From the sequence record PQ249397: a DNA stretch of 64,000 nt, one strand, 5' to 3'. Source of the stretch: Escherichia phage Pu-Krd-SF3. Position numbers and translations under genes: made by a program. This document shows positions 21,551-22,183 of the stretch, one piece after another (position 1 is the first letter of the stretch; each line of letters begins with the position of its first letter). A model generated the notes under the pieces. It made no database searches. It worked only from the letters and a program-made list of their open reading frames with translations, and was not told the DNA's origin.

Positions 21551-22183
21551 ATGAATATAGTATATTGGTTTACATTTGAAGACCGTGTCAAAAATAAGAC
21601 TCCGCCATACTACTATATCGGTAGTAAATTAAATTGTTCATTTAAGAACGGAATAATATATGACTCTTCTGGAAAGGAATACTGGAGCTCATGTAAACAA
21701 AAAAGGTTTTTGAATGCGGTAATGCTTCAAAAACCGAGCGTTAAAATAATTCAAATTGATGATGACTTGGATGTTATTGAAGCAGAACGAAAATACCAAC
21801 TTGAAGTAAATGCCAGAGATAATCCAGACTATTTCAATCTGGTATATGCTGGTGGTGGATTTGGTGTGAGTGGTGAAACTCATCCAGCCAAAGACCCGGA
21901 AGTTAGAGAGCATATGAGATTGGCTAATTATATGAACCGTGACGATTTTAGACCTTGGAAAACATCACGAGCTAATATAGAGTCTTGGAAATTATCTCAT
22001 ATTGCTTACGAGAATTATGTGTTATTATTATCCTCTAATCTGTACGGTAAAACTCCTGGATGGCGAAGAGTTAAAGGTAATATAAATATAACTGATACAA
22101 CTGCTAAATCGATGGTAAAGTATTTCAACTCAGGTTGGATACCTCTCGAAGACCCAGAGTATTGCAAATTATGCCAGCTATGA
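21551..22183 (+). CDS. segG: free-standing GIY-YIG homing endonuclease (SegG-like)
   Basis: 210 aa; N-terminal VYWFTF...YYYIGSK resembles a GIY-YIG motif; lies between genes 59 and 32 where T4 carries segG. Confidence 0.55.
   Translation: MNIVYWFTFEDRVKNKTPPYYYIGSKLNCSFKNGIIYDSSGKEYWSSCKQKRFLNAVMLQKPSVKIIQIDDDLDVIEAERKYQLEVNARDNPDYFNLVYAGGGFGVSGETHPAKDPEVREHMRLANYMNRDDFRPWKTSRANIESWKLSHIAYENYVLLLSSNLYGKTPGWRRVKGNINITDTTAKSMVKYFNSGWIPLEDPEYCKLCQL

Follow-up and report, generated by a model that had tools for sequence, protein, structure and literature searches.

A segG orthologue between genes 59 and 32 of Escherichia phage Pu-Krd-SF3 overlaps the gene 32 translational operator

The window analysed here, a 64,000-nt stretch of DNA from Escherichia phage Pu-Krd-SF3 (PQ249397), shares 100% identity and its coordinates with Escherichia phage Pu-Krd-SF4 (PQ759884.1), which is a Tequatrovirus close to T4. 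Its 59–32 region is 98.2–98.3% identical to that of T4. The + strand carries rnh, dsbA, 33, 59, segG and 32 in this order, preceded by gene 34 on the other strand, and the order is identical in T4 (rnh-dsbA-33-59-segG-32-frd.3). The three genes of immediate concern are:

20896–21549, + strand: gene 59, helicase loader, the left flank (Pfam T4_Gp59_N, 1.1e-53, and T4_Gp59_C, 1.5e-52; alignment with T4 and RB32)
21551–22183, + strand: segG coding sequence, 633 nt, ATG at 21551 and stop codon TGA at 22181–22183, 210 amino acids
22234–23142, + strand: gene 32, ssDNA-binding protein of 302 amino acids, the right flank (Pfam gp32, 1.1e-66)

The ATG of segG lies 1 nt past the gene 59 stop codon, and the encoded protein begins MNIVYWFTFEDRVKNKTPPYYYIGSK. 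Exactly 50 nt (22184–22233) separate the segG stop codon from the gene 32 ATG, in agreement with the original prediction, made from the sequence alone, of a 210-residue ORF ending 50 nt upstream of gene 32. In the PQ759884.1 annotation gene 32 is merely a ‘hypothetical protein’ and segG merely a ‘homing endonuclease’.

The product of the ORF is identical to T4 SegG (AAD42455.1) at 207 of 210 residues in a gapless, full-length alignment, and is encoded at the same locus. The GenBank label of the T4 protein is ‘site-specific DNA endonuclease; GIY-YIG family’. The ORF is also matched from end to end by PHROG 7504, ‘homing endonuclease’ (E=8.6e-133). At the nucleotide level there are seven differences from T4 segG, four of them synonymous and three non-synonymous (E32K, L57V and E206K), and none of the three substitutions falls at a conserved residue. 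Judged by sequence and position, the ORF is segG, the orthologue of T4 SegG and a free-standing homing-endonuclease gene. A chance ORF was considered and is ruled out by family matches at 1e-133 together with conservation in ∼140 genomes. T4 SegG, formerly ORF 32.1, shares with the protein described here the 210-residue length and the 59–32 locus, and its gene shares the stop codon within the gene 32 pseudoknot and the embedded late-promoter consensus TATAAATA. The T4 locus differs in having a 55-nt spacer to gene 32 rather than 50 nt, there being one AATTA unit fewer here, and a gp32 of 301 rather than 302 amino acids.

segG is an optional gene at a fixed position. It occurs at 97–100% nucleotide identity in 141 phage records and its ORF is intact and full length in ∼140 phages. 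Searches with the flanking 59/32 sequence or with the operator gave 497–499 records at ≥90% identity, of which 140–141 (∼28%) cover segG. RB32 lacks the gene and has a 99-nt spacer between genes 59 and 32, and the same holds for ∼360 other close relatives. The original prediction had described the ORF as interrupting a conserved run of replication genes and had proposed a search for presence/absence polymorphism among related phages. Such a polymorphism exists, with segG in ∼140 of ∼500 close relatives, and the interruption is borne out as an insertion in rnh-dsbA-33-59-32. An optional gene placed between conserved genes at a constant site is the arrangement that marks free-standing T-even homing endonuclease genes.

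In the alignment with T4 and RB32 the insertion is bounded on the left by the stop codon of gene 59 and on the right by CCAGCTATGAGG, where homology to the segG-less spacer of RB32 restarts. It follows from this restart that the final three triplets of segG (CAG CTA TGA, two sense codons and the stop) are sequence common to phages without the gene. For T4 it has been suggested that the segG frame was extended into the pseudoknot sequence of the recipient (PMC535899). Downstream, gene 32 of the window alternates at a fine scale between T4-like and RB32-like sites, and the pseudoknot and neighbouring sites are T4-like. To judge from sequence comparison, this mosaic around a homing locus is compatible with repeated recombination and homing or co-conversion there, although it is not proof of them. 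Two features of the RB32 state were also observed, an additional glycine codon in gp32 at 22297–22299 (302 residues, against 301 in T4) and a gene 32 leader without one AATTA unit at 22209/22210 relative to T4.

The 59–32 locus is also occupied by SegG-like genes in other genera, namely in a Gaprivervirus (UPEC07) and a Jiaodavirus (PKO111):

1800–2438 of the Escherichia phage UPEC07 sequence (L003): SegG-like gene at the 59–32 locus
1801–2463 of the Klebsiella phage PKO111 sequence (L004): SegG-like gene at the 59–32 locus

Both encode an N-terminal nuclease domain homologous to that of SegG, the first 198 nt being ∼69% identical in DNA sequence, and both have C-terminal domains that differ from that of the SegG described here. 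In PKO111 just 3 nt separate the end of the SegG-like ORF from the gene 32 ATG, which makes the A/U-rich leader (ACAACTGTCTAAATAAAATAAAGG) part of the coding sequence. No T4-type pseudoknot is evident at the 59–32 locus of this phage. The presence of SegG-like genes with other C-terminal domains at the 59–32 locus of other Tevenvirinae genera is mildly new.

SegG is composed of two domains, joined in the AlphaFold2 model (mean pLDDT 91.2) by a low-confidence linker:

21551–21865, + strand: predicted N-terminal nuclease domain of divergent GIY-YIG type, approximately residues 1–105 (conservation in 26 and in 121 homologues; AlphaFold2 pLDDT 92–98; Foldseek)
21887–22180, + strand: C-terminal helical domain, approximately residues 113–210 (secondary structure of the model; PHROG matches to the C-terminal parts of other homing endonucleases)

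The modelled N-terminal domain has a β-β-α-β-α topology. A profile search (E≤1e-3) of a library clustered at 50% identity, with 1.84 billion representatives, returned 505 that have the SegG N-terminal domain, most of them sharing just the first ∼105 residues. The C-terminal domains of the relatives vary, and the alignment of 26 sequences shows swaps, including NUMOD3 and zinc-finger-like domains. [quoted passage not shown] The C-terminal domain of SegG is presumed to serve in DNA binding and target recognition.

Within the N-terminal domain, conservation across the 121 sequences is concentrated in a small set of residues. Y5, Y22, I23, G24, K26, Y44, S47, E79 and N96 are conserved at 94–100% (Y5 98%, Y22 99%, I23 94%, G24 100%, K26 98%, Y44 99%, S47 98%, E79 99% and N96 99%), with V4 at 90% and R12 at 82%. 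The equivalent of the ‘GIY’ motif is I3-V4-Y5, which lies on a predicted strand (residues 2–8), as the first β-strand motif of a GIY-YIG domain should. Y22-I23-G24 lies on the strand formed by residues 21–26, 16 residues after the GIY equivalent versus the canonical ∼10–11, with a short helix (residues 10–15) inserted between them. E79 on the helix of residues 75–85 and N96 after it correspond to the metal-binding glutamate and the conserved asparagine of the family. When the N-terminal domain profile was forced by hhalign onto a shallow I-TevI alignment, Y5/Y6, Y22/Y17, E79/E75 and N96/N90 paired, with a non-significant score (E=0.1). The I-TevI alignment was shallow in that the search for catalytic-domain homologues gave just nine near-identical fragments. 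No conserved arginine equivalent to the catalytic R27 of I-TevI was found after YIG in the 121 aligned sequences. Eight residues past G24 there is a lysine here (K32) and a glutamate in T4 (E32), and the conserved basic residues of SegG are K26 and, between the motifs, R12.

Structural comparison of the model with 350,542 PDB chains using Foldseek placed the catalytic domain of I-TevI at ranks 1, 2 and 8 (1LN0_B, 1LN0_A and 1MK0), with TM scores of 0.50–0.58 normalized to target length and non-significant E values of 1.6–2.8 (the best match having E=1.6, a TM score of 0.58 and a probability of 0.41). Among the predicted viral structures of BFVD there were 28 matches at E≤1e-3, including proteins annotated as GIY-YIG homing endonuclease, Seg-like homing endonuclease and NUMOD3 proteins, those annotated GIY-YIG or Seg having E values of 5e-5 to 1e-3. 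Rank 21 of the BFVD matches was P04523, a 392-residue T4 ‘DNA replication protein’ (E=3.5e-4), which we take to be the old gene 69 entry spanning what is now segF.

Sequence profile searches gave a different picture. SegG had no Pfam match at E≤1, and PF01541 was matched neither by SegG or 25 homologues at E≤10 nor in the scan of all 121 members. NCBIfam returned noise only for the whole protein and for each half. PDB sequence searches with the single protein and with family profiles gave no catalytic-domain match, the 121-sequence profile matching just the DNA-binding region of I-TevI through the NUMOD3 parts of the relatives, and hhalign of the 26-sequence family profile against I-TevI was not significant. 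Seven of the 121 scanned sequences matched Pfam SegE_GIY-YIG (PF19835), with a best E value of 3.3e-4. No Pfam or NCBIfam model covers the SegG N-terminal domain, though it is present in 505 cluster representatives. The original prediction of a GIY-YIG-like N-terminus (VYWFTF...YYYIGSK) is supported by the motif residues, the predicted fold, the architecture of the relatives and the biochemistry of T4 SegG, with the missing arginine and the wider motif spacing departing from the canon. It had also named the lack of a GIY-YIG profile match as a refutation, and PF01541, NCBIfam and the PDB sequences did come up empty. We do not read this as refuting the assignment, because the motif residues, the predicted fold, the domain architecture of relatives and the biochemistry of a 99%-identical protein agree.

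One may ask instead whether SegG is a homing endonuclease whose nuclease domain is not a true GIY-YIG domain, the IVY- and YIG-like strings having arisen by chance on an unrelated or convergent fold. The empty PF01541 and PDB sequence searches, the non-significant profile–profile score with I-TevI, the spacing of 16 residues between motifs compared with ∼10 in I-TevI and the lack of the canonical arginine past YIG would all fit such an origin. However, it leaves unaccounted for the placing of three I-TevI catalytic-domain chains at ranks 1, 2 and 8 of 350,542, the significant structural matches to viral proteins annotated GIY-YIG or Seg, the seven distant relatives that reach SegE_GIY-YIG, and the near-invariant Y, Y-I-G, E and N, which occur in the order and on the secondary structure elements expected for the GIY-YIG fold. 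Structure and domain architecture make an unrelated fold unlikely, sequence statistics by themselves being less decisive, and we regard its chance as minute. Motifs, modelled fold and the analogy with T4 SegG all point to SegG being a divergent Seg-type GIY-YIG enzyme.

Comparison with better known members of the family bears on what kind of GIY-YIG enzyme SegG may be. GIY-YIG nucleases carry out Mg-dependent double-strand cleavage that leaves 2-nt 3′ overhangs. SegA–F of T4 (Pfam SegE_GIY-YIG, PF19835) are, like SegG, two-domain proteins encoded by free-standing genes between conserved genes. SegG differs from them in having no PF19835 or PF01541 match, a longer GIY-to-YIG spacing and another C-terminal domain, although some distant SegG relatives do match PF19835. 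I-TevI of the td intron (PDB 1LN0/1MK0) is the best PDB structural match of the N-terminal domain model, yet its sequence similarity to SegG is statistically undetectable. Unlike SegG, it is intron-encoded, cuts within ∼25 bp of its insertion site, carries R27 past YIG and has a zinc-finger/NUMOD3/HTH DNA-binding region. We suggest tentatively, and as a reading we would not ourselves favour, that the SegG clade might form a distinct, uncurated GIY-YIG subclass in which the canonical arginine has been lost and its role passed to R12 or to the near-invariant K26. If so, the clade would represent a rearrangement of the active site that no current profile library captures. That current GIY-YIG profile models miss the SegG clade, and that the clade lacks the canonical arginine, is mildly new, and is a reminder that the Pfam GIY-YIG model is blind to it.

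The 3′ end of segG runs into the translational operator of gene 32, which has two parts:

22172–22199, + strand: gp32 translational-operator pseudoknot (sequence identical to T4; covariation; PMC535899, PMC3014915)
22200–22233, + strand: A/U-rich unstructured operator arm, with UUAA(A) repeats and the Shine–Dalgarno sequence AAGGA at 22222–22226 (alignment)

Stem 1 of the pseudoknot (4 bp) pairs 22172–22175 with 22184–22187, loop 1 is the single base 22176, and stem 2 (7 bp) pairs 22177–22183 with 22193–22199. The last 12 nt of segG (TGC CAG CTA TGA, 22172–22183) thus supply the 5′ arms of both stems together with loop 1, so that the last three codons and the stop codon of the gene lie inside the pseudoknot, with the stop codon (22181–22183) in stem 2. 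The ORF was originally thought to abut the operator. It does not, as the two overlap by 12 nt, and an overlap of the gene 32 pseudoknot with segG has been described for T4 (PMC535899). Ten pairs examined in six phages (the window, T4, RB32 and three of Mosigvirus) gave 60 cells, every one with standard pairing, and the Mosigvirus phages have one compensatory change in stem 2, from U-A to C-G. As a control, shifting the partner by one to three columns reduced pairing to 20–57%. The pseudoknot starts 62 nt upstream of the gene 32 ATG, whereas in T4 it starts 67 nt upstream (PMC3014915), and the A/U-rich arm, which has a role in cooperative gp32 binding (PMC3014915), is 5 nt (AATTA) shorter than that of T4 and equal to that of RB32. 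The short form is common in phages with segG. An H-type pseudoknot followed by an A/U-rich stretch up to the ribosome-binding site is the T-even gene 32 operator layout. No Rfam family matches the gp32 operator.

Signals that may govern transcription and RNA processing of gene 32 also lie within segG, and a further candidate lies upstream of it:

21383–21407, + strand: candidate MotA-type middle promoter at the gene 59 3′ end, TGCTTGA (21383–21389), 12-nt spacer, TATAAT (21402–21407), from reading of the sequence
22003–22028, + strand: candidate middle promoter for gene 32, MotA-box-like TGCTTA (22003–22008), 14-nt spacer, TATTAT (22023–22028), from reading of the sequence
22081–22088, + strand: late-promoter consensus TATAAATA, an exact match that is the same in T4, 146 nt upstream of the gene 32 ATG
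22167–22171, + strand: AAUUA, the equivalent by coordinate transfer of the T4 RNase E site at −71, here at −66 (position 22168) in the last segG codons

AAUUA at 22167–22171 is presumably an RNase E sequence motif. The consensus TATAAATA occurs 12 times in the whole window versus 8.6 expected, which is not above chance, and its function as a promoter at 22081–22088 therefore rests on the T4 literature. In T4 the middle and late promoters of gene 32 are within segG (PMC2988022), and RNase E processes every gene 32 transcript at −71 (PMC3014915). The sequence at 22003–22028, where the spacing is not ideal, is a candidate for the embedded middle promoter of gene 32, and the exact assignment is a provisional one. 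segG itself is listed with those endonuclease genes whose promoter lies in the 3′ part of the preceding gene (PMC2988022), and the candidate at 21383–21407 could be the site that drives its transcription. By analogy with T4, the same promoter use and RNase E processing would be expected in the phage examined here.

In RB32 the 99-nt spacer (1001–1099 of the L002 sequence) contains a MotA-box-like TGCTTA, the late-promoter consensus TATAAATA and TATAAT within ∼30 nt, just past the gene 59 stop codon. In phages with segG the equivalent signals sit 150–230 nt upstream of gene 32, inside segG. A scan for σ70 promoters and terminators found six promoter-like sites versus 5.0 expected and was uninformative for T4 middle and late promoters. 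The same type of scan detected one terminator-like hairpin within segG versus 0.3 expected, at 21824–21842 on the − strand, with an 8-bp stem and a T-poor tail. A T4 paper by Belin et al. (1987) has antisense transcription of the gene 32 region in its title. The suggestion in the original prediction that the insertion point may influence gene 32 regulation gains support from the middle and late promoters, the −71 site for RNase E and the 5′ portion of the pseudoknot, all of which lie inside segG as published for T4 (PMC2988022, PMC535899, PMC3014915).

That so many gene 32 signals reside in one ORF raises the question of whether segG is kept mainly as a regulatory scaffold for them, with a protein that may be inactive or irrelevant in this phage. 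The late-promoter consensus, the MotA-like box, the RNase E site equivalent and the pseudoknot stems are all within the ORF, and embedded promoters have been argued to favour retention (PMC2988022). Set against this, the ORF is not merely present but intact and full length in ∼140 phages at 97–100% nucleotide identity, the residues conserved throughout the family are all kept, the differences from T4 are four synonymous to three non-synonymous, and T4 SegG, which is 99% identical, is reported to be active and mobile (PMC2988022, PMC2330249). As the sole explanation a scaffold is disfavoured and has in our view a very small probability. A scaffold role would add to homing rather than stand in for it.

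The function of segG is indicated by work on T4, in which SegG is active, belongs to the GIY-YIG class and has gene 32 as its target (PMC2988022, Table 1). Through its action T2 gene 32 markers are excluded in crosses between T4 and T2, and segG is inherited at high frequency (PMC2988022, PMC2330249). Seg endonucleases cleave the neighbouring gene of a phage that lacks the endonuclease, leading to intronless homing and marker exclusion (PMC2988022). Free-standing endonucleases cut hundreds of base pairs or further away from the gene that encodes them, such that the gene is copied only if resection extends into homologous flanking sequence (PMC2988022, PMC2330249). For a 99%-identical protein at the same locus the same function is most likely, and by this analogy cleavage activity, a target in gene 32 and homing would hold for the phage described here. 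We consider with high confidence that segG of the window is a free-standing homing endonuclease gene of the Seg/GIY-YIG class that functions as in T4.

Thus, we propose that, on co-infection with a relative lacking segG, SegG would make a double-strand break in gene 32 of that relative. The break would be resected and repaired by recombination with the segG-carrying genome as template, and the repair would copy segG together with adjacent gene 32 sequence into the recipient. This is homing with co-conversion and would be seen as exclusion of gene 32 markers. The element landed in the control region of gene 32, and for this reason signals that gene 32 requires, namely predicted promoters, the predicted processing site for RNase E and the 5′ pseudoknot arm, are now part of the coding sequence of segG. 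The location of these signals inside segG probably disfavours clean loss of the element. segG may accordingly be viewed as a textbook selfish endonuclease gene, which spreads without an intron and gives rise to marker exclusion between T-even phages, and as an element whose loss becomes difficult as soon as an essential gene has its control signals inside it. Work on T4 has already established each of these points, namely segG and its enzyme class, the fact that it is mobile, the promoters it contains, the site for RNase E and the pseudoknot overlap, and another T4-like isolate with segG adds nothing new in these respects. The practical value lies in the correct annotation of segG and gene 32.

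Other GIY-YIG-type genes are present in the window. HMM searches with SegG-family profiles found no second SegG-like gene among its ORFs. The ORF at 32468–32902 (+ strand) has a canonical GIY...YIG...R pattern and is presumably denA, encoding endonuclease II, as a third protein of GIY-YIG type in the window. The ORF at 26156–26890 (+ strand) is 100% identical over 245 residues to I-TevI, the GIY-YIG homing endonuclease of the td intron. The phage would therefore also carry the mobile td intron endonuclease.
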